Assembly (NCBI GenBank): GCA_944368945.1
Contig: CALVXH010000003.1
Location: 1-45,308 of the forward strand
Source: an uncultured Bacilli bacterium
GTDB lineage: Bacteria > Bacillota_I > Bacilli_A > RFN20 > CAG-826
DNA: 45,308 bases
Reading direction: 5' to 3'
Under the pieces are notes generated by a model that saw only the letters and a program-made list of their open reading frames with translations, did not search any database and had not been told where the DNA came from. The translations under genes and the position numbers were made by a program. Of this stretch, positions 13,076 through 23,992 are shown in pieces (position 1 is the stretch's first letter; each line of letters begins with the position of its first letter).

Positions 13076-13869
13076 TAAAAATCACCCTCCACATAATTAA
13101 CAATTTTATTTTTATCTTCTTCATCAAAATAATCTTTAATTGGTAAAAGATAACCCATAATGATTAATCTACGAGCCTCTTCTAAAGATAAGCCCCTACT
13201 TAATAAATAAAATATGTGATCATTATTTAATGAACCAATAGCACATGCATGGCTAGCAATAATATCATCACAATCAATCTTTAAAATAGGGTTGGCAATT
13301 GCTCTAGATTTTTCATCAAATAAAAGGCATTTAACCTTTTGATGGGCTTCGCTTTTAATGGCATTTTCTTTAATATGAGAAACTCCATTAATTTTAATAA
13401 AACTATCATCCATAGCTACGCCATATCCTTCAAAATTTGAAGTTGTATATCCTACTTCATGATTAAATGATATGTCATAATTTTTAAGATTAGTGCCTTT
13501 AGCTAAACTAGTAAAATATACATTAGTATTTGAATTATTTTTTAATAAATTAATGTTAGATTTAACTGTGGTATTTTCTTTACAATAATCTGCAAAATAT
13601 AAATTAAAAGTTGAGTTTTCGTTTAAATTTCCCTGCAAATTGATTGTTTTTTCTTCATTTTCAATTAAAAACTTAACTTGGCAAAAAGAGTTATCACTTA
13701 TATTAAAGCTAAGGCTAGTATTTTTATTAAAACCAATTAATAATAAATCTACTTTAATATTTTTAAGGACCTCAAAAGTTGCACTTTGATTATATTTTGT
13801 TAAATCAAAGACATATTTTCCATCCTTATTAATAGATATAATATTTTCTAAACTATTTACTTGTTCCAT
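13075..13869 (-). CDS. sufD: SufD (short form; start likely 13869)
   Basis: NPILKIDCDDIIASHACAIG, FYLLSRGLS; position between sufC and sufS. Confidence 0.9.
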   Translation of the reverse strand: MEQVNSLENIISINKDGKYVFDLTKYNQSATFEVLKNIKVDLLLIGFNKNTSLSFNISDNSFCQVKFLIENEEKTINLQGNLNENSTFNLYFADYCKENTTVKSNINLLKNNSNTNVYFTSLAKGTNLKNYDISFNHEVGYTTSNFEGYGVAMDDSFIKINGVSHIKENAIKSEAHQKVKCLLFDEKSRAIANPILKIDCDDIIASHACAIGSLNNDHIFYLLSRGLSLEEARRLIIMGYLLPIKDYFDEEDKNKIVNYVEGDF

Positions 13870-14689
13870 TTTTAACATACTCTTTAGTTGCACAAACACC
13901 AATTGAAACTTTATTCATTGGTTGTTCTTCTTTTTCAATATTAATTCCATATTCGTCTTTAATCCATTCGTATCCTTCTTTATCGATACGTTTATAAATT
14001 TCTGGACCACCTTCACATGCAACTTTTCCATTTACAATAACAACCGATCTAGTTGGTTTAATTAATTCAAATAGTCTAGCATAATGAGAAATAATTAAAA
14101 AACCTGTATGTTTTTCTTCAAATTGTTTATTTATGCAGTCACTTACAATATTAATTGCATCAACATCAAGTCCACTATCAATTTCATCAAGCATTGCAAT
14201 ACTAGGATTCAATAATAACATTTGAAGGATTTCATTCCTTTTTTTCTCTCCTCCACTAAATCCATCATTAAGTGAACGGTTAAACATTTCAAAAGGAATT
14301 TTAACTTCCTTTGTTGCTTGATCAAGTATTTTATAAAATTGATATAATGATACTCTTTTTTCAGAATGTTCATTGATAGCAGCCTTTAAAAAATCTGCAC
14401 TATTTACTCCAGGAATTTCGCTTGGATTTTGGAAGCATAAAAATAATCCTTTTTTACTTCTAGTTGGAACATCCATTTCAAGAACATTTTCACCATCAAG
14501 GAAAATCTCCCCTTTTGTAATTTTATAGCGTGGATTCCCCATAATTGCGTTGAAAAGCGTACTTTTTCCATGCCCATTAGGACCAAGTAAAGCAACTTTT
14601 TCTCCTTCGCTAACTTCAAGATTTATTCCTTTTAGAATCTCTTGTCCTTCGACTTCTACATGTAAATCTTTAATTACTAATTTCTTCAT
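13853..14689 (-). CDS. sufC: Fe-S assembly ATPase SufC
   Basis: GPNGHGKST, FSGGEKKRNEILQ, LDEIDSGLDVDA, ISHY. Confidence 0.97.
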   Translation of the reverse strand: MKKLVIKDLHVEVEGQEILKGINLEVSEGEKVALLGPNGHGKSTLFNAIMGNPRYKITKGEIFLDGENVLEMDVPTRSKKGLFLCFQNPSEIPGVNSADFLKAAINEHSEKRVSLYQFYKILDQATKEVKIPFEMFNRSLNDGFSGGEKKRNEILQMLLLNPSIAMLDEIDSGLDVDAINIVSDCINKQFEEKHTGFLIISHYARLFELIKPTRSVVIVNGKVACEGGPEIYKRIDKEGYEWIKDEYGINIEKEEQPMNKVSIGVCATKEYVKNGTSK

Positions 14690-14959: not shown

Positions 14960-17077
14960 ATGAAGAATGGAAAAAAAGCGATAAGTTTAGTGTTTACTGC
15001 TTTAGCTGTTGTTTCTCTTTCAGGATGTAGTGATGTTACTACTAATAGTGATGGTAAAATTTTAACCTACACTTATCAAGGTCAACATTTAGATATTTCA
15101 ACAGATGATATCATCCAAAAATATCTTAACGAATCTAGAGATGAACATGCAAAAGCATTCTATGATGCACTTTATGAAATCGTTGTCCGCGCTAGCTTTG
15201 AAAAAGGTGGTGATTTAAGCACTTATAAAGACGCTGTAGAAGCTACTGCTAGAGATGCAGTCGAAGAAGCTAAAGATAGCGCAGATAATTCAGGAACAAG
15301 TTGGCATGATTACTTAGTTAATCAAGGATACAACGATGCTAACATGACTGATTCAGAAAGAGAAAATGAATTCTACCTTGATAAACTTTATACAGCAATG
15401 ACTGGCAGAGTTGACACTGAATTCAATAGCAAATTCAAAACTTGGGTTGTTTCAAATGATGAGGTACAAAAACAATATAATGCTCTTTGGGGCGTTAATG
15501 GTTATATCAATAAAAAACTTCCTTACCATGTAAAACACATCCTTGTTAAGGTTGATGCTAGCGATGATAATGGATATTCACGTGGTCACATCTCAAGTGA
15601 TAATGCTGCAAAGTTGTATAACACTATTACAAGTTTAGTTGAAGGCAACTCTTTTAGTAATGTCGCAAAGAACTACTCTGATGATACAGGTAGTAATACT
15701 AAAGGTGGTGAATACATTATGGATACTGAAGCTGGTTTCGTTAACGAATTCCAACTTGGTATTTATACCTATGACACAATTATTAATCCACAATATAAAG
15801 AACAGCCTAATTATGATGAAAAACTTGATGTATTAAATATTACTGAAGATGCACAAGATGAATTAACTGATTTTGGTGTCACATTCATTCCTTATGGTGT
15901 TGTTGATGAATTAAACAAAGTAAAAGATAAAACTACTACTGATAATGGCTTAACAATATATGATGGTGATGAAGACTACTTCCCAAGAAATATTTACTTC
16001 AATAAGTATTTCCAAAATCGTAATGTAGGCTTTATTACAAATGAAACTGCATTTGCAGAAGCAGATTTCCCTACTGATTTCGTAAATCCTGGTGAAACTG
16101 GCGATAATAATGCTGTTGGATATAGAAAATTTGAAGATAATGTCTCAGGAAGTTCAGTCTTTACAGATATTGATACTACAGGACACTATAAAACATCAGG
16201 TATAGAATTCTTTAAATCTGGTGATGATGATGAGCGAGCAAAAAGGTTTAAACCTTTAACAGTCTCGATTGAAGGCCAACCAGTCACTAAAAATGTTCTT
16301 TGTGATACAGAAGGAAACCCTATCTTAGTTGTTAGAAATCAAGAATCATCAGGTGGTGTCCATTTCATTATTGTTGAAAGATCAGCATTTGATGAAAATG
16401 ATGTTAACTTTGATTACAGTGGATATAAAGAAGCTGGTGCAACTGGTTCTTCTGATGAAGAAATTTATAATGAATATCACACTACTTTAAATGAATACTA
16501 TGCTGCTGCAAACCCTAAAGAAAAAGACGGAATTAAACCTACCACAAATAAACCATATTATGTTGGTGGTGATTTATTCCCAGCATATGAATATGAAAAA
16601 GGCGCATATGTTCCTAAGAAAACTTATGTGCAACAAAATATCGTCACCTCTTCTCCAACAAACTATGTAAACGATACTGTTGAAAATTACAATTTAAGAG
16701 TTGATGATATTGATAAAAAGATTGATGGTATGTCTTCAACAACACAATTCAGTAAATATGAATGGTTAAATAGCACATTGAATTTAAGTTTGAATGAATT
16801 CACAGATGCAAAAGTCGATGTACAAGGATTAGTTGACAGATACATTAATACACAAATGAATTCTCAAGAAAGAAGCTCAGCAAAATCCATGCAAGATAAA
16901 TGGACAGCGTATGTTGCTTCAATTAGAAAACAATCTTGGGAAAGAGAATATAACTTATTACCTGAAATTTTAGCAGCTGATTTCGGAAATCCAGAATTAT
17001 ATAAAAATGGTGCTCCAGGTTATAATGCAAAATATTATACAGTCAATGGAAATTTAACTACAGGAGGTAATAACTAA
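14960..17077 (+). CDS. Large lipoprotein with parvulin (PpiC-type) PPIase motifs; expanded PrsA-like foldase
   Basis: Lipobox LSGC; 'YHVKHILVK', 'FSNVAKNYSDDTGSNTKGGEY', 'FVNEF', 'GGVHFIIVE'; located beside hit and yhaM as prsA is in Bacilli. Confidence 0.75.
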   Translation: MKNGKKAISLVFTALAVVSLSGCSDVTTNSDGKILTYTYQGQHLDISTDDIIQKYLNESRDEHAKAFYDALYEIVVRASFEKGGDLSTYKDAVEATARDAVEEAKDSADNSGTSWHDYLVNQGYNDANMTDSERENEFYLDKLYTAMTGRVDTEFNSKFKTWVVSNDEVQKQYNALWGVNGYINKKLPYHVKHILVKVDASDDNGYSRGHISSDNAAKLYNTITSLVEGNSFSNVAKNYSDDTGSNTKGGEYIMDTEAGFVNEFQLGIYTYDTIINPQYKEQPNYDEKLDVLNITEDAQDELTDFGVTFIPYGVVDELNKVKDKTTTDNGLTIYDGDEDYFPRNIYFNKYFQNRNVGFITNETAFAEADFPTDFVNPGETGDNNAVGYRKFEDNVSGSSVFTDIDTTGHYKTSGIEFFKSGDDDERAKRFKPLTVSIEGQPVTKNVLCDTEGNPILVVRNQESSGGVHFIIVERSAFDENDVNFDYSGYKEAGATGSSDEEIYNEYHTTLNEYYAAANPKEKDGIKPTTNKPYYVGGDLFPAYEYEKGAYVPKKTYVQQNIVTSSPTNYVNDTVENYNLRVDDIDKKIDGMSSTTQFSKYEWLNSTLNLSLNEFTDAKVDVQGLVDRYINTQMNSQERSSAKSMQDKWTAYVASIRKQSWEREYNLLPEILAADFGNPELYKNGAPGYNAKYYTVNGNLTTGGNN

Positions 17078-18960
17078 TGAAAAAGAGAAATTTATTAATC
17101 ACATTAGCTTGTTCTACATTATTATTAACTTCATGTGATAAGATTACTGCTACTCTACCAAATGGAGATCATCAATTAGTTAATACACAAATTTATATTG
17201 ACCACAACACACTTTCAACAATTTATGACACTATTAAAGGCGGAGATAGTTACGCAAGTAATGTCAATGATCTTTTAACTCAAGGAATTGCTGAAGCTGT
17301 CTTAGGAAAATATGAAGTTGTTCTAGATTCAAATGCTGCTCATGGTTATAAAATTAACCTTTCAGGATACGATGATGTTGATGATGATAAGAAAACTGAA
17401 TTTATCAATAATCATCCTGCATATAACAATTGGCAAAGTAGTTCATATAAATTAACACTTGCTACTAAAGCTCCTTCTAAAGAAGAATTCGAAGCAAGAG
17501 TTAATATAATAAAGAATTTAATTGATAAACAAATTGTTACCACAATGTGGAGTGAGGCAAATGCTACATCATATAAGAGAAACAATAGATTCTACGAAGT
17601 TTTATACGCAAGAAATTTAAGTGATAAATTATATGATGTCACTGATGGAGCAGGAAAAGCAATTAGTGATGATATAATTTATAATGAGCAAATCAACTAT
17701 GAATATGGTGAAAATGCATTATATGAAGAAGTAAATGGTAAATTTAATGGCTTCAATGAATATGCTGCGGGTACAAACTTATTTGGTGGATATTTTACTC
17801 AATATGCATTGATTGACGGAAAATATGATTCTTCTACAGAAGCAGGTAGAGAAAATATTAAATCAATTCTCCACTTAAACTACTATCTTGATTACATTAA
17901 TTCTTCAATTATGCCAACAATTATGAAGAATTTACTCATTGAACAATATGTTTTACAAGAACAATATGTTGCAATTGGTAATACAGGTTCTAGAAAAGTT
18001 AACTACATCGCTATTACAAATAACGCTGATAAAGATGGCGATAAATTCTTCGATGAATTCTTAAATAAATATTTCACTGGTTCAGATGATAAATACTTAG
18101 AAAAAGACACATTTGATAAATGGGAAATAGCAAGTGATGCATGGAAAGGTGATCCAGCAATTATTGATCCAAACGCGGAAACTAAAGCACTTGCTGAAAG
18201 TGTATTTGGCACTGCAAGTAGTGAAAATCCATCTGCAAATTCTGATGGACACAATGCTAATGATAAAAATGGTGGATATATTGCTCAATATGGTGATAAT
18301 AGAACATTAACATATTATGATGGAACACCTTATGCTGACATTATTGATGACTTCTCAACATTAACTAATAATATCACTACAAATAACACCACAAATTACA
18401 CATCATTTACAGAAATTGATAGTATTTCATATGAACCAATCGTTGGTTTATCAATCAAGATTGATTCTAACACTGTAACTGATTACACAACTTATGGTTG
18501 GCAAACAAGAGATTCCTCTTCTTTACCAGATTCCGTTAAGAACAAATTATTCTCATACGGATTTGTCAACGAATGGAATAGCGCTATTGCTAGTGATAGC
18601 AAGCAATATTCAGGTTCATACCTTTATGAAGTTGGCAATACTGGCAAGTACTTATTAAGAAAAGATACATATTCAAATTTAAATGAATCTGTATTATGGG
18701 AAGAAAGTGGATCATATTATGTTGTCGAAGTCGAAGATATTATTACTCCAGACTCAACAGCTATTACTGAAAATTTAACCGCTGAACAAAAAGTGAAAAT
18801 TGAAACTAATGCTAGAGAAGCTGCTTATACATTAGCAAGTGGATCTACATATACTACAAACGCAATGATTTATTATCTTGAACAATGTAATATTAATTAC
18901 CACGATCAAGATGTATATGATTATTTCGTTTCAACTTATCCAAGATTATTTGAGGATTAA
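17077..18960 (+). CDS. Large uncharacterised lipoprotein, possible degenerate PrsA paralog
   Basis: Lipobox LTSC; TAATG coupling to the upstream gene; weak PrsA-like segments 'RKVNYIAI', 'GSYYVVEV', 'LEQCNINYHDQDV'. Confidence 0.65.
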   Translation: MKKRNLLITLACSTLLLTSCDKITATLPNGDHQLVNTQIYIDHNTLSTIYDTIKGGDSYASNVNDLLTQGIAEAVLGKYEVVLDSNAAHGYKINLSGYDDVDDDKKTEFINNHPAYNNWQSSSYKLTLATKAPSKEEFEARVNIIKNLIDKQIVTTMWSEANATSYKRNNRFYEVLYARNLSDKLYDVTDGAGKAISDDIIYNEQINYEYGENALYEEVNGKFNGFNEYAAGTNLFGGYFTQYALIDGKYDSSTEAGRENIKSILHLNYYLDYINSSIMPTIMKNLLIEQYVLQEQYVAIGNTGSRKVNYIAITNNADKDGDKFFDEFLNKYFTGSDDKYLEKDTFDKWEIASDAWKGDPAIIDPNAETKALAESVFGTASSENPSANSDGHNANDKNGGYIAQYGDNRTLTYYDGTPYADIIDDFSTLTNNITTNNTTNYTSFTEIDSISYEPIVGLSIKIDSNTVTDYTTYGWQTRDSSSLPDSVKNKLFSYGFVNEWNSAIASDSKQYSGSYLYEVGNTGKYLLRKDTYSNLNESVLWEESGSYYVVEVEDIITPDSTAITENLTAEQKVKIETNAREAAYTLASGSTYTTNAMIYYLEQCNINYHDQDVYDYFVSTYPRLFED

Positions 18961-18969
18961 TTAAAAAAT

Positions 18970-18998
18970 AAACTGCTTCAATTTTGAAGCAGTTTTTT
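18970..18998 (+). terminator. Intrinsic terminator after the lipoprotein pair
   Basis: AAACTGCTTCAA-tt-TTGAAGCAGTTT plus T-tract. Confidence 0.8.
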
Positions 18999-19014
18999 AA
19001 AAGGAGATATAAAT

Positions 19015-19437
19015 ATGGATTTTGATACAAATTGTATATTTTGTAAGATAGCTAACAAGGTTATCCCTTCTACTATTATTTATGAGGATGAAGATGTTTT
19101 AGCTTTTTTGGATGTCAATCCTGTTACCTATGGTCACACATTAGTTATTCCAAAAAAACACTATGAATCATTTTTATCATGCCCTAAAGACGTTTTACAT
19201 AAAGCATTTGACCTTGCTCAAAGAATTGGTCAAGTTCAAATAAAACAACTTGGCGCAAAAGGTGTTAATATTTTGACAAATTGTTTTGAAGCTGCAGGAC
19301 AATCAATACCTCATTTCCATATCCATGTAATTCCTAGATATGAAGCTAATGATGGCTTTAAACTAGAAATGAAAGAATTGAAAAATGTTAATTTACCTGT
19401 ATTAGCTGCAGAATTAAAAGAAAGTTTAAATAAATAG
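19015..19437 (+). CDS. hit: HIT family nucleotide hydrolase (HinT/Hit)
   Basis: CIFCKI, GHTLVIPKKH, AGQSIPHFHIHVIPR histidine triad; AAGGAG RBS. Confidence 0.95.
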   Translation: MDFDTNCIFCKIANKVIPSTIIYEDEDVLAFLDVNPVTYGHTLVIPKKHYESFLSCPKDVLHKAFDLAQRIGQVQIKQLGAKGVNILTNCFEAAGQSIPHFHIHVIPRYEANDGFKLEMKELKNVNLPVLAAELKESLNK

Positions 19438-19440
19438 TAT

Positions 19441-19492
19441 CAAAAAAGAATCGACTCAATCGAATAAATTCGAGAAATCGATTCTTTTTTTG
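19441..19492. terminator. Bidirectional terminator between hit and yhaM
   Basis: AAAAAAGAATCGA...TCGATTCTTTTTT. Confidence 0.8.
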
Positions 19493-19497
19493 TCATT

Positions 19498-20433
19498 TTA
19501 TAAACTTCCATTAAAGAAACTTCTATTGTCTAATCCAAACACTCTTTCAGAATAATCGTTTTCTTTAGTAGTTTCAAAAGCTTTTTCTAACATAACCATC
19601 TTAGCATCCATATCATCAATCATCGAAAGAAGTAAAGCTTCTCTAGTTAAAGGCAAAACTGGAGAACCATATTCTAACTTACCATGATGTGATAATAACA
19701 TATGTTCTAACAATAATGGTGCATTTCCTTCTATATGCAGTTTATCAGCAGCTTCTTTAACAATAGTCATTCCAATTACTAAATGGCCTAATAAGTTACC
19801 TTCATTAGTATATTTAGTTGCTTCAGTCCCACTTAATTCAACTACTTTTCCTATGTCATGAAGTAAGCATCCACTTATTAATAAATCTCTATTAACTGAT
19901 GTATATATTTTGCACACGCTATCAGCTACCTTACACATTGTTACTGTATGGAATAGTAAACCATTTATAAATTCATGATGATTTCTAACTGCTGCAGGAT
20001 AATCAACAAATTTATCTCCGTATTTTTTAAATACTTCATTTACAATTGCTTTTAAAGATTCATTTTCAATGCTTGAAACGAAACTATGAAATTCTTCTAC
20101 TAATGTTTCTTTATCAACTGGAGCATGTCTATCAAAATCTTTAGGATCTTTGTTGGACTTTTCTACTCTCTTTATAGTAATTTGATGCTTATTTTGATAG
20201 AGACGAAGCTCACCTTTTATTTTTACAACATTTCCTACTTTAAATAAGTTTTTTTCAGAATTCTCATCATAATCCCGTTTATAGCCTTCAATATCTAAAG
20301 AGCCATCTGTTAAAATAACTTTCAAATATTTTGATGCTGGATTTGTTCTAGATTGTTTTGGATCATCCATTGATTTAATCTTAAAATCGCTTTCAAATTC
20401 CTTTGTATTATTCATTATTAGATCTTTAATCAT
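19498..20433 (-). CDS. yhaM: 3'-5' exoribonuclease YhaM/Cbf1 (OB-fold plus HD)
   Basis: YPAAVRNHH, GLLFHT, LLHDIGK, GNLLGHL, SHHGKLEYGSP, IDDMDAK. Confidence 0.93.
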   Translation of the reverse strand: MIKDLIMNNTKEFESDFKIKSMDDPKQSRTNPASKYLKVILTDGSLDIEGYKRDYDENSEKNLFKVGNVVKIKGELRLYQNKHQITIKRVEKSNKDPKDFDRHAPVDKETLVEEFHSFVSSIENESLKAIVNEVFKKYGDKFVDYPAAVRNHHEFINGLLFHTVTMCKVADSVCKIYTSVNRDLLISGCLLHDIGKVVELSGTEATKYTNEGNLLGHLVIGMTIVKEAADKLHIEGNAPLLLEHMLLSHHGKLEYGSPVLPLTREALLLSMIDDMDAKMVMLEKAFETTKENDYSERVFGLDNRSFFNGSL

Positions 20434-21232
20434 CAAGTTTACCTTCCTTATCTAAACTCATAGCATGATGAATCATTGATAAAGAATAACCTTTATCAAT
20501 TAGTTTATTCACTATCTTGCTATATTTATCAATACCATTAGTACTCTTTGTCAAAACTTTATTTTTTATCTTTTTATAATCCTTAATTAATTCTTTTTGC
20601 TCTTTATCTACATCAATTTTTAGATTATCTAACACATTCAAAATTGCATCAACAGAAAATCCTCTTTCAAGCATTGCATCATAAATTTTTCTTTTTTGCT
20701 TTGCAAAAGTAAAACGAAGAAATTTATTTTTTATGCTTTCAAAATACTCTTTCGCTTTTAAAGCTTCTTTATTGTCGTCAAAAGTGATCTTTCTAATAGC
20801 AGTTTCCGTTACACCATGGCTTTTACAAAAATTTAAAATGTAATACTTACCATAAAGATTTTCATCAAAATAAGTTAGATAATTTTTTAAAAAAACTTCA
20901 TCATCTAAAATATTAGATTTTTTTAACTCTTTCAATGCTAATCTTAACTCTTTTGGACAAGCAAATTTCTTATTAATGAGTTTAATTAAATCACGTTCAC
21001 TATAAGGTTTTTTAGAGGCTAAAGATTTTGCATAACTTAAAATTTCTTCCTTTTTTTCAAAACTAGCAATCTCATAAGCTAAGCTTTCGCTAATAACATC
21101 TCCAACCTTTAAATCAAATTTATTAAATGTTGAACTATGTAATTTAACTTTTGCAAAAGGAAACTCAACAATATATTTATTACCTTTTTGTTTTATGGAT
21201 AATATCTTTCTACCAGTATCTTCTAATTGCAC
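20426..21232 (-). CDS. recX: RecX family regulator (divergent)
   Basis: 'KPYSERDL', 'NILDDEVF', 'YGKYYI', 'MLERGFS', 'LIDKGYS' helical repeats; about 270 aa as in Firmicutes RecX. Confidence 0.7.
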   Translation of the reverse strand: MQLEDTGRKILSIKQKGNKYIVEFPFAKVKLHSSTFNKFDLKVGDVISESLAYEIASFEKKEEILSYAKSLASKKPYSERDLIKLINKKFACPKELRLALKELKKSNILDDEVFLKNYLTYFDENLYGKYYILNFCKSHGVTETAIRKITFDDNKEALKAKEYFESIKNKFLRFTFAKQKRKIYDAMLERGFSVDAILNVLDNLKIDVDKEQKELIKDYKKIKNKVLTKSTNGIDKYSKIVNKLIDKGYSLSMIHHAMSLDKEGKLDD

Positions 21233-22382
21233 GTTTATATACCTCTATAATATTAATATAAAAACTTTGTTCACTAAAACTATCAATTGATTTAAGAGCA
21301 TTTTCACAAATTGTATTAATTTGTTCTTTATTTAAGTTTAGCACATAAAAAAGTTTGTCAGCAAAATCTAGTTCATCAATAAAGAAAAATCCAGTTTTAT
21401 TATTATCAATAACACCAACTAAGTTATTATCAAATCTGCATAAAACAGGCACACTACTAGCCATTGCTTCCATAAATGTTAAACCTTGAGTTTCACTAAT
21501 AGAAGCATTAACAAATAAATCAGAAATTAAATAGTATTTAAATACCTCTTCATTTGAAACCTTCCCTAAAAATTTAACATTATTACTTAGTTCAAGTTGA
21601 TTAACTAAATCTATTAAATCATTTTTTTCCGGACCATCTCCAACAAAAATCAAAATAGTATTCTGATTAGTATATTTTGTTAAATAATTTTTATAACCTT
21701 TTACAATGATATCAAAACTTTTCTCTTTAGCTAATCTTCCAAGACACAATAGTACTTTTTGTTCATTAGAAATACCTAATTTTTCTCTAAGATCTGCAAC
21801 TTTTTTTAAATTATCATAGCTTCTAGCAAATTTATTAAATTCAAACCCAGTAGGTACAACATTAACATATTTTTCTACACCAATTGATTTAATATAGGTT
21901 AAAGTCTTTTTTGAAGGAGAAATAATTTCTGTTGCTCTATTCATACAAGTTTTATCAAACTCTCTAATAGCCCATTTAGAAAATCTGTCAAAATATCCTT
22001 TTGTAGCATAATAAGTATAATCTTCATACATAGTATGATATGTATAAACAGAAGGAATATGCAAATTACTCGCCACAATAAAACCAAATTGTGATATACC
22101 AAATTCAGTATTAATGTGGACTAAATCAAGATTAAGGCTTTTTAAAATTTTGAATGCTTCTTTATTATAAAAAAATGAAGCCCTATATCCATAAAGCTTT
22201 TTAAGTTCTAATCCAGGAATTCTTAAGATATTGTCTTGAAATGTTACACTTTTATCCTTACTTGTTGTAACAATATAAGCATGATGTCCATTTTTTCTTA
22301 GTAGCATAAATAAAGAGTTAACACTAGTCGCAACTCCATTAATTTCTGGTAAATATGTATCTGAAAAAATAGCTATATTCAT
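21210..22382 (-). CDS. GT4 glycosyltransferase, probable 1,2-diacylglycerol 3-alpha-glucosyltransferase
   Basis: FSDTYLPEINGVATS, YTYHTMYEDY, GRLAKEK, SETQGLTFMEAMA. Confidence 0.88.
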   Translation of the reverse strand: MNIAIFSDTYLPEINGVATSVNSLFMLLRKNGHHAYIVTTSKDKSVTFQDNILRIPGLELKKLYGYRASFFYNKEAFKILKSLNLDLVHINTEFGISQFGFIVASNLHIPSVYTYHTMYEDYTYYATKGYFDRFSKWAIREFDKTCMNRATEIISPSKKTLTYIKSIGVEKYVNVVPTGFEFNKFARSYDNLKKVADLREKLGISNEQKVLLCLGRLAKEKSFDIIVKGYKNYLTKYTNQNTILIFVGDGPEKNDLIDLVNQLELSNNVKFLGKVSNEEVFKYYLISDLFVNASISETQGLTFMEAMASSVPVLCRFDNNLVGVIDNNKTGFFFIDELDFADKLFYVLNLNKEQINTICENALKSIDSFSEQSFYINIIEVYKRAIRRYW

Positions 22383-23992
22383 TCTTCGTCATCATCCCCG
22401 ATTACAATTTTATCTTCATATTCTCTTTTTTCAATATTTTCATTTTGTAAAGTAGATATTTCTCTAGTTTTTTTATTTTTATCATGATGAATAATTTTTT
22501 CCAACATTTGTTTTCTTTCTAAAGCTTTTGTTTCATAAATAGTATCACTAGAGGCTTTTCTTTCTGCGTATGTTTCAAGTTGAATAGTAAGCATCGTTTT
22601 TCTATTACCAACAGGAATAATTCTCTCTTTGACTGAAAGACCCCTACTTTTATAAGTAGCAGCGAAGATGCCATTAATAATAAAAGGAATATAGAATGTC
22701 CCAAATCTCCAAACAAGTAAAATAATATTAAGACCACCGCGTAAATAAAATTCATCACTATAGTAGCCACTTGATTGTCCAAATAAACTTGCAAAAACGA
22801 TTTCACTAATACCAGCACTTCCAGGTAAAGGTATTAATCCAGTTACCATTTGATGGAAATTAGAAAATACAACACAGTCATACATTTTTTGAAATATATT
22901 TATATCATTTAAATTAAAAGCGTTAAGTGCTAAACCACTAAAAAATGGAGCTAACTGATTAATAATTAAATTTACTAGCATTAAGAAAACAATTAATAAT
23001 GTAAATGGGATATTACTTTGTAAACGTCTAAGCTCGATTCTATAGTTTTCAACCTGAATTCTAATATTTTTTCTTTTTTCGTCTGCGTTTTTAATTATTC
23101 TTAGTTTTGCAAAAATATTGACTAAAGTTACTGTAATAAAGTCTAATACTTTTTTTGAATATGACATGAAAAGTAATAAGAAAATAACTAATAAATTTAA
23201 AGCGAAACCGAATATAGCAAAAGCCCATATAGGTATTGAAAAACTAATATCACCAATAGTTATTGGAATAGCACTTAGTGAAAATATTAAATCAAAACTT
23301 GTTATCAAAGAAACCAAGCCAACAAATATTAACACTGATTGACTTATGATAAAACTCATAACAAAAATAGAGGCACTATTACTAACTGGTATACCTTGTT
23401 TTTTAAATGTATAAACTTGGGCAAATTGACCTCCACTAGATCCTGGAGTAATAGCGCTATAAAATGAACCTATCGCATTATTCGCATATGCTTGATGATA
23501 CTTATAATGTCTTGTGTATAATCTTGCGAATAAAAAGATTATTAAGGATGAAAGTAAATAATTGACAAAAACAAAGAAAATAAATAGGAGAAAATACCAT
23601 AAGTTCATTTCTTTAAATACACTTCCAATTGTTTGATAAACATAAATTGGATTGCCATTTTCATCTACCATTCCAGTAACACTTGCTAAGTTATACCATA
23701 ATACAAAAACAGTAATTAATAAAATTAAAAAAAGATAGATGATGTATTTATAATTGTCACTTTTTTTAGCACCACTTATCGATGAAGCAGAACTAGTACT
23801 TTTTTCATTAGTTTTTTCCTCTTCTACATCTTCGCTAATGGATTCTCCTAAATTAATTTCCTTTTCTTCTTTCTCATTAATTTGAATTCCATCTTCGCTT
23901 TGAATTATAGTGTCATTATAAAAATTGTCATCAATTTTTGTCTCTGATGAATTATTTTCATGCAGTTCCTTGTTTTTTTCTTCATTTATCAT
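22379..23992 (-). CDS. Lysylphosphatidylglycerol-synthase TM (flippase-like/YbhN) membrane protein
   Basis: ITPGSSGGQ, IPLPGSAGISE, LLVWRFGTFY motifs; adjacent to a glycolipid GT. Confidence 0.85.
   Translation of the reverse strand: MINEEKNKELHENNSSETKIDDNFYNDTIIQSEDGIQINEKEEKEINLGESISEDVEEEKTNEKSTSSASSISGAKKSDNYKYIIYLFLILLITVFVLWYNLASVTGMVDENGNPIYVYQTIGSVFKEMNLWYFLLFIFFVFVNYLLSSLIIFLFARLYTRHYKYHQAYANNAIGSFYSAITPGSSGGQFAQVYTFKKQGIPVSNSASIFVMSFIISQSVLIFVGLVSLITSFDLIFSLSAIPITIGDISFSIPIWAFAIFGFALNLLVIFLLLFMSYSKKVLDFITVTLVNIFAKLRIIKNADEKRKNIRIQVENYRIELRRLQSNIPFTLLIVFLMLVNLIINQLAPFFSGLALNAFNLNDINIFQKMYDCVVFSNFHQMVTGLIPLPGSAGISEIVFASLFGQSSGYYSDEFYLRGGLNIILLVWRFGTFYIPFIINGIFAATYKSRGLSVKERIIPVGNRKTMLTIQLETYAERKASSDTIYETKALERKQMLEKIIHHDKNKKTREISTLQNENIEKREYEDKIVIGDDDEE

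Follow-up and report, generated by a model that had tools for sequence, protein, structure and literature searches.

Two enlarged PrsA-type lipoproteins, one apparently active and one inactive, encoded ahead of hit in an uncultured Bacilli lineage, and their probable relation to mycoplasma P80

Bacillota depend chiefly on the foldase PrsA, a homodimer, for protein folding after translocation, and lineages with reduced genomes have, to our knowledge, long been thought to live without any such foldase. What, in this light, are the two giant lipoproteins that an uncultured Bacilli bacterium (GTDB lineage Bacteria; Bacillota_I; Bacilli_A; RFN20; CAG-826) encodes side by side in front of the histidine triad gene hit? 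The locus occupies positions 14960..19437 of the window, by which we mean the whole analysed stretch of 45,308 nucleotides (nt; contig CALVXH010000003.1 of assembly GCA_944368945.1, positions 1 to 45,308, forward strand), and its two lipoproteins, of 705 and 627 amino acids (aa), are called P1 and P2 here. We consider it probable that P1 and P2 are PrsA-type paralogues of long standing, an active member and an inactive one, which likely form a heterodimeric extracytoplasmic foldase. According to the mechanism we propose, both would be extracytoplasmic, lipid-anchored, ATP-independent foldases, which insertions have brought from roughly 300 aa to 600-700 aa in this gut lineage of uncultured Bacilli; translational coupling would lead to their production in a fixed ratio, they would most likely assemble through their N/C chaperone domains, and the heterodimer would take up unfolded proteins emerging from the Sec channel. 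The gene hit would be an ancient syntenic partner, set apart by a leaky terminator-like hairpin, and its link to the pair would be a genetic one. The parts of the locus on which the argument depends are the following:

14960..17077, + strand: P1, a lipoprotein of 705 aa; PrsA architecture complete, parvulin domain split and apparently active
14960..15028, + strand: signal peptide and lipobox LSGC of P1, with Cys23 invariant in 24/24 sequences
15518..15769, + strand: first part of the P1 parvulin domain, residues 187-270 (PYHVKHILVK .. YSDDTGS .. FVNEFQLGIY), containing the Pfam Rotamase_3 match at residues 189-265
15770..16315, + strand: insertion of about 180 aa within the P1 parvulin domain, residues 271-452, with an invariant PRN..FNKYF motif (family alignment)
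16316..16387, + strand: last two strands of the P1 parvulin domain, residues 453-476, NPILVVRNQESSGGVHFIIVERS (alignment and structure match)
17077..18960, + strand: P2, a 627-aa lipoprotein and apparent PrsA paralogue with a degenerate parvulin domain
17986..18741, + strand: parvulin-like pseudo-domain of P2 with large insertions, residues 304-555
18862..18957, + strand: conserved PrsA-like C-terminus of P2, ..YYLEQCNINYHDQDVYDYF.., the most conserved block of the P2 family alignment
18970..19001, + strand: terminator- or attenuator-like hairpin and T-run between P2 and hit (perfect hairpin itself 18970-18995)
19015..19437, + strand: hit, a Hint-type histidine triad protein of 140 aa with the motif HFHIHVI (Pfam HIT, 2.5e-27)

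At the P1/P2 junction, AACTAATGAAA, the last A of the P1 stop codon TAA is the first base of the P2 start codon ATG (TAATG), and an AGGAGG is found 9 nt upstream; the lipobox of P2 is LTSC, its Cys20 being invariant in the P2 family alignment. An earlier note on this DNA had described two TAATG-coupled lipoproteins followed directly by hit and facing yhaM, the first keeping parvulin motifs and the second only faint PrsA-like strands and a PrsA-like C-terminus. Coordinates and junction confirm this layout, except that hit, adjacent as it is, is separated from P2 by a spacer of 54 nt with a hairpin and T-run, and both statements on the proteins agree with the results given next.

P1 scores 35.3 bits against Rotamase_3, above the cut-off of 22.5 bits, and a search against PDB sequences yields a weak match to the parvulin domain of Listeria PrsA1 (E 4.5e-4). 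Aligning 24 members of the family reveals a parvulin domain that is complete yet split into two blocks about 180 residues apart: His190, His193, Asp242, Met254 and Phe260 are nearly invariant, as are His468 and Phe469, and Pro454, Ile455 and Gly466 are invariant. The catalytic-type residues His193, Ser240/Asp242 and His468 are thus kept, and judged by its residues the domain is apparently catalytically competent. Parvulin structures can be placed on the model of residues 187..475 via 88-106 residues only, with 1zk6 aligning over 88/91 residues at a root-mean-square deviation (rmsd) of 2.3, and the peptidyl-prolyl isomerase (PPIase) domain is flanked by the two parts of a SurA-N/trigger-factor-like N/C chaperone domain. 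Scores against the NCBIfam PrsA models are far below their cut-offs (NF002846, 24.0 vs 361 bits; NF000809, 32.5 vs 303 bits). P1 is the sole Pfam Rotamase or Rotamase_3 match in the genome (1.6 Mb, 92.9% complete); the pair therefore replaces the canonical PrsA, and this genome has no other PrsA-type system.

P2 remains without a match in Pfam, NCBIfam or PDB sequence searches. Its strands RKVNYIAI and SYYVVEV align to the first and last parvulin strands (SHILV and GKHLIKV in compact A, the first protein of a shorter pair from another order that is introduced below), both without histidine; with both histidines and the Ser/Asp loop gone, P2 has no parvulin catalytic residue left. The second protein of the shorter pair, compact B, has PRKAVVLSF and TTYIIKI at these positions and, like P2, is missing the S-D-D loop. 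From these alignments P2 would be a pseudo-isomerase on a PrsA scaffold, with insertions that lengthen its parvulin-like domain. It belongs to a large family: a profile search yields 315 cluster representatives (E <=1e-3; 190 with E <=1e-30), measuring about 400-700 aa. Searched with P2, the ESM Atlas gave matches to the protein's own family and, in 5/30 matches (score 0.95), to clusters bearing Rotamase, which should be taken as a lead only.

How the two proteins are related becomes visible through the compact pair. Among 400 genomes of the class, a profile of the P2 family was positive in 40/40 of the window's family and in 6/6 and 2/3 of two sister families within its order, and it also matched weakly, with N- and C-terminal parts, open reading frames (ORFs) of about 290 aa in another order (family f11). 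In all eight f11 loci (L036-L043) the first gene of the pair encodes a membrane-anchored protein (324-356 aa) and the second a lipoprotein (283-311 aa) whose parvulin domain is degenerate; in 4/8 the next gene downstream is HIT, on the same strand, and in two more HIT is the neighbour on the opposite strand, sufC is divergent upstream in 4/8 and yhaM lies near in 2/8. Parvulin models of Pfam match 5/5 of the first proteins, three of them strongly (Rotamase_3, E 2.6e-20 to 1.6e-11), and of the five second proteins scanned, four match Rotamase or SurA_N no more than weakly, with scores short of the Pfam cut-offs. In hhalign comparisons the P1 family matches compact A at 99.7% (E 2.4e-26), the P2 family matches compact B in three colinear segments (95.5, 92.1 and 51.7%), the C-terminal block of P2 matching its compact paralogue at 95.5%, and compact A matches compact B at 99.3% over 280 columns. 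The compact proteins thereby identify P1 and P2 as paralogues, and a PrsA derivation of both is supported at the fold level and via profile links. Since the compact pair stands at the same locus in the other order, an existing pair seems to have been expanded, rather than prsA recently duplicated; the duplication would be older than the split of the two orders, with both members enlarged afterwards in the lineage of the window. The duplication and expansion of prsA proposed in the earlier note accordingly retains the PrsA origin and the expansion, and the duplication itself moves further back in time.

Do the paralogues also form a complex? A structure prediction was carried out on a stand-in, a natural pair of 523 + 402 aa from a genome of the same order, with signal peptides removed and family alignments supplied. 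Its median ipSAE was 0.80 (0.78, 0.80 and 0.83 in three runs), the best of three controls reaching 0.00; in a benchmark, 116/157 solved complexes and 2/215 mismatched pairs attain that mark. At least 89% of the contacts were common to the runs, with a partner pLDDT of at least 87. In the prediction both chains contribute their chaperone segments to the interface, with strands and helices from the N-terminal one and helices from the C-terminal one; the N-terminal strand of the P1-type chain would be paired with the conserved C-terminal strand of the P2-type chain, and interface residues 380-387 of the stand-in pair correspond to the most conserved C-terminal motif of P2. The active/inactive heterodimer envisaged in the earlier note has thereby found agreement at the level of residues as regards the active and inactive members, and agreement by prediction, on the stand-in pair, as regards the heterodimer.

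It should also be noted that several points weigh against this reading. The Rotamase_3 match of P1 is partial, spanning just profile positions 16-86 of 116. BLASTP detects no direct similarity between P1 and P2 (E 0.22), and their hhalign match of 87% covers the signal peptide and N-terminus only and falls to 0.4% once these are trimmed, so that paralogy follows from the compact intermediates that link them and not from any direct pairwise similarity. All Foldseek E-values exceed 0.001, and whole-chain alignments give an rmsd of 6.6-11.6 Å. The stand-in pair comes from another family of the order, and the window's own pair amounts to 1332 aa. The prediction of a hetero-pair may partly reflect likeness to solved PrsA homodimers, and it is this prediction, in a comparison confined to hetero-pairs, from which the suggestion of a heterodimer comes.

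The second question concerns hit. The order P1-P2-HIT is found in 20/23 loci of relatives (two others end at a contig edge and one is without HIT downstream) and in 55/65 loci from named metagenome-assembled genome records, nine of the ten misses being cut by contig or locus ends and one having an ABC-ATPase-like ORF inserted. A tight linkage of the pair to hit across the order is borne out by both counts. Most of these loci are flanked by sufC and yhaM, and in B. subtilis prsA, yhaM and hit presumably also lie within a few genes of one another. A sister family of the same order (f8, L044:1419-5192) has a P1/P2-type pair of 642 + 608 aa and hit elsewhere in the genome; the linkage is therefore not absolute within the order. 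The flanks in the window are:

13853..14689, - strand: sufC, first gene of the divergent suf operon, left flank (ORF; BLASTP relatives lie divergent upstream of P1 in most related loci)
19443..19491, no strand assigned: inverted repeat between the convergent genes hit and yhaM, likely a bidirectional terminator (read in the sequence)
19498..20436, - strand: yhaM-like 3'-5' exoribonuclease gene, 312 aa, right flank, convergent in most related loci

Both neighbouring products score below the corresponding NCBIfam cut-offs, the HIT product with 98.4 bits against M_plasma_HinT (cut-off 130) and the yhaM-like product with 304 bits against the YhaM model NF010007 (cut-off 460).

The spacer between P2 and hit contains a perfect hairpin and a T-run just ahead of the ribosome-binding site of hit. 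When the equivalent spacer was folded in 17 loci of the same order (L002-L009, L011-L013, L015, L017-L021), a strong hairpin and T-run were present in 17/17 with differing stem sequences: the structure is conserved, the sequence is not. The element looks like a leaky terminator, an attenuator or a stabiliser of the mRNA 3' end within the cluster. Because the P2-hit spacers are so short, we infer that transcripts reading through a leaky terminator probably account for the expression of hit. Parts of P1, P2 and hit are represented in contigs from metatranscriptome libraries, one of which spans the P1/P2 junction, and a single contig bridges P2, the hairpin and hit, in a library labelled RNA-Seq whose RNA status is a guess; being assembled contigs only, these data bear on neither the expression level nor read-through. 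Contigs 90-99% identical to P1, P2 and hit (region 16500-19600) occur in RNA-labelled libraries from animal gut, feces and birds, in three studies. A physical tie of HinT to the pair is unlikely, since neither lipoprotein has a tail in the cytoplasm and hit is preceded by a terminator-like hairpin.

A comparable gene order has been described in mycoplasmas. According to the available text of Hopfe et al. (2005, PMC1173108), the hitABL operon of Mycoplasma hominis encodes P80 (hitA), the lipoprotein P60 (hitB) and HinT (hitL), HinT binds P80, and the two proteins encoded upstream in M. mycoides and Mesoplasma are larger and are both lipoproteins; the accessible part of an earlier report describes P80 as a secreted antigen (Hopfe et al. 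2004, PMC539234). Among the loci collected here, the 12 of one code-4 family encode P80 (701-881 aa), then P60 (431-709 aa), then HinT. The NCBIfam model for P80 or P60 is the top match in 8/8 proteins scanned of this family; six of them exceed the curated cut-off (347-673 bits, with true P80 proteins at 545-673 bits against NF045833), and the two of the most divergent locus stay below it at 91.5 and 76.2 bits. In-frame TGA occurs in 24/24 of the P80 and P60 ORFs. Spiralin-type signal peptides mark the lipoproteins of another three code-4 families, which would belong to the Spiroplasma/Entomoplasma/mycoides group; lipoprotein A (654-983 aa), lipoprotein B (486-809 aa) and HIT follow one another in 23/23 of their loci (L125-L129, L138-L143, L147-L154, L160, L161, L165, L166), one with two extra ORFs before HIT. 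In the best-sampled of these families the B gene and HinT share one base in 6/13 loci, and sufC is divergent upstream in 6/13 and yhaM convergent downstream in 10/13, which are the flanks of the window. Two more code-4 families, f44 (four genomes; lipoproteins of 565-574 + 457-462 aa) and f45 (membrane-anchored proteins of 603-774 + 491-606 aa), have a pair before HIT in 4/4 and 10/13 loci, respectively. None of the 12 hit loci of f19, taken as Acholeplasma-like and reading under table 11, has lipoprotein neighbours, and none of the six of f35, taken as Mycoplasmoidaceae-like, carries the pair. By position P1 resembles P80, two genes upstream of HinT with a lipoprotein gene next, and P2 resembles P60, a lipoprotein gene immediately upstream of HinT. 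Extra ORFs between the B protein and HIT were seen at L010:559-1167 (202 aa), in L102 (ABC-ATPase-like, 235 aa), at L152:5316-7947 (286 + 551 aa) and, with about 300 aa each, in the f45 loci L133:2926-3870 and L157:7108-8013.

With the layout of these loci at hand, other explanations of the pair can be weighed. P1 and P2 could both derive from PrsA and nevertheless work as separate homodimers with different clients, their coupling just balancing expression. Listeria and other Bacilli do possess two independent PrsA paralogues, as stated in the consulted part of PMC12826049, and the predicted heterodimer goes back to a single prediction; against separate homodimers, P2, devoid of any catalytic-type residue, still adjoins P1 in every locus with enough sequence, its most conserved motif sits in the predicted hetero-interface, and the TAATG coupling implies a fixed P1:P2 ratio, so that we regard this explanation as unlikely. 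If instead the three genes formed a true operon whose HinT product binds or regulates the pair, as has been proposed for P80, P60 and HinT of M. hominis, one would expect the order seen in the 55 loci and in code-4 Mycoplasmatales, where the genes overlap or abut; the HinT-P80 binding reported in the accessible text of PMC1173108 and the contig that bridges P2, hairpin and hit (its library's RNA status being a guess) point the same way. P1 and P2 are, however, lipoproteins offering no transmembrane or cytoplasmic segment to a cytoplasmic HinT, the hairpin and T-run stand before hit in the window as in all 17 folded loci of the same order, and the adjacency could be inherited synteny, like that of the equally conserved suf and yhaM flanks. 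A three-product unit of this kind seems to us rather improbable.

P2, or the insertions of both proteins, might also have taken on a surface role outside folding, such as adhesion, nutrient capture or antigenicity, with the PrsA scaffold serving as an anchor. More than half of P1 and of P2 is indeed insertion without a fold match, and Mycoplasma P80 was described as a secreted antigen (PMC539234, as far as its accessible part goes), but the insertions are conserved across the family (for example, the invariant PRN..FNKYF), chaperone domains and predicted interface are kept, and no adhesin or binding-protein family was matched in Pfam or NCBIfam; we would give such a role only a small chance of being correct. 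A heterodimeric PrsA-type foldase thus remains our preferred explanation of the pair.

Whether P80 and P60 share this origin, as the earlier note had suggested, receives a different answer for each of the two proteins. Neither P1 nor P2 matched either of the NCBIfam P80 and P60 models at E up to 1 (P1 against the P80 model NF045833 and P2 against the P60 model NF045835 included), and PDB sequence searches with the P80 and P60 profiles found no foldase. The best bridge from PrsA-like proteins to the hit loci of Mycoplasmatales is the A protein of f44, which has sub-threshold Rotamase_3 matches in 3/4 members (best E 0.0017, 19.4 bits). This protein (L130:4241-5938 (-), with L131, L132 and L156) still shows the parvulin remnants VSVQHSLVKF, SYSEDTGS..GYLG and KDGFHFF. 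After removal of signal peptides and anchors, hhalign connects the P1 family with f44A (83.0%, E 9e-6, 220 columns), compact A with f44A (84.1%), f44A with f45A (97.6-98.4%, E 4e-15) and f45A with P80 (83.9-88.6%, E 2.6e-6, 104 columns, with a second colinear match of 23.6%); compact B matches f45A at 86.4-91.7%, f44A matches P80 at 48-76.5%, and f45A matches the spiralin-type A proteins at 78-93%. The three main links score 96.4, 97.9 and 97.3% untrimmed. As controls served B-type proteins of the same genomes, which have the composition in common: in a first set 39/42 pairs stayed at or below 0.7% (the exceptions being f44A-f44B, 20.7%; f32A-P60, 2.8%; P80-f44B, 1.7%), in a second set 12/12 at or below 0.2%. 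The common core of the A lineage is a segment of the PrsA N-domain around ..QYG..W...W...L...GY....EY... A direct comparison of the P1 family with P80 is not significant (24.7% untrimmed, 3.5-9.1% trimmed). All in all, a descent of P80 from a PrsA-like A lineage is unproven and in our opinion probable, because the profile chain through two intermediate Mycoplasmatales families is joined by the gene order and, in some families, by the suf and yhaM flanks.

P60 failed in every sequence test. The P2 family reaches P60 at 21% over 20 columns, or 3.3% trimmed, with no intermediate family bridging them, and its similarity to the spiralin-type B proteins is weak (14-33%), always around the helix YIN..I.P...LL...Y. 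None of 24 trimmed pairs of the B lineage links P2 or compact B to Mycoplasmatales B proteins or P60, the best scores being 22% (P2 family-f18B), 48% (f44B-f45B) and 9% (f45B-P60). The relation of P2 to P60 is one of position only. That all HinT-linked pairs of Mycoplasmatales, P80/P60 and the spiralin-type twins alike, descend from one PrsA paralogue pair located between suf and hit/yhaM before Mycoplasmatales, the order of the window and a third order of Bacilli diverged is a tentative proposal, to which we attach slightly less than even confidence. If true, P80/P60 would be the extracellular foldase of those mycoplasma families that lack the dome proteins (Mdps) of M. pneumoniae, and the very old linkage of PrsA and hit would point to a functional tie between the phosphoramidase HinT and post-translocational folding. 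The P80-PrsA link appears to be unpublished: full-text literature searches, with most subscription journals outside their range, returned no statement of it, neither chaperone nor isomerase is mentioned in the accessible part of the P80 paper (PMC539234), and HinT and P80 have zero occurrences in the two Mdp preprints (10.1101/2024.09.05.611430, 10.1101/2025.04.25.650208).

Compared with the PrsA proteins of Bacillus, Listeria and Streptococcus (structures 4wo7, 5htf, 5tvl, 9ibn), the pair has in common the N-terminal lipobox and extracytoplasmic location, the parvulin domain inserted between the halves of the N/C chaperone domain, the catalytic-type His, Ser/Asp and His (in P1) and, by prediction, dimerisation via the chaperone domain. 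It differs in that P1 and P2 are 2.2-2.5 times larger, with about 180 aa inserted into the parvulin domain of P1 and other insertions besides, in that P2 is apparently a pseudo-enzyme, and in the predicted hetero-pair in place of a homodimer. With hitABL it shares the order of large surface protein, lipoprotein and HinT, as well as the suf and yhaM flanks of the code-4 families taken as the Spiroplasma/Entomoplasma/mycoides group; P80, in contrast, has a signal anchor and no lipobox, no parvulin signature was seen in P80, and the Mycoplasma genes overlap or abut, whereas here a hairpin stands ahead of hit.

Giant PrsA-derived hetero-oligomers have already been described for M. pneumoniae, and the present locus is a new variant. 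As far as the available portions of the two preprints go, Mpn436, Mpn444 and Mpn489 (Mdp436/444/489), each a lipoprotein of roughly 1300 aa, combine a PrsA-like chaperone domain with a parvulin domain that insertions have split; they show activity as PPIases and build a hetero-trimeric dome over the Sec translocon, the catalytic residues being preserved in Mdp444 alone, and homologues are reported only in Mycoplasmoidaceae (10.1101/2024.09.05.611430, 10.1101/2025.04.25.650208). The likeness, drawn from these published descriptions of the Mdp (MG307/MG309/MG338) family and not from sequence or structure, comprises much enlarged lipoproteins, the PrsA-like chaperone domain, a parvulin domain interrupted by insertions, a hetero-oligomer with one catalytic subunit (predicted for P1/P2) and the proposed task of an extracellular foldase in a wall-less or reduced Bacillota cell. 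The Mdps differ by their size of about 1300 aa with an internal duplication and by their heterotrimer, and the accessible preprint text has no mention of hit. A P1 family profile found nothing in five genomes of f35, taken as Mycoplasmoidaceae-like, a result that shows little. Either way, whether one lineage or independent expansions, the giant-PrsA systems of the window and of M. pneumoniae may represent the same evolutionary solution, active and inactive members with massive insertions, here in an unrelated uncultured gut lineage.

The main added value of the locus is evolutionary: its place on the path from compact PrsA pairs, the ancestral form as seen in the f11 order, to the HinT-linked surface proteins of Mycoplasmatales is well supported. 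P80, known for more than 20 years solely as a HinT-binding, secreted antigen, gains a testable function, as it may be a degenerate PrsA-type chaperone in M. hominis. In at least three orders, moreover, PrsA-type genes have stayed linked to hit, which opens the role of bacterial HinT to genetics. A promoter scan was uninformative, with 28 sites vs 31 expected from shuffles. Downstream of yhaM (20426-23992, - strand) follow a RecX-like ORF of 268 aa, a glycosyltransferase-like ORF of 390 aa and a polytopic membrane protein of 537 aa, the first two of which are syntenic with the locus in many relatives, even in the order of the compact pair.

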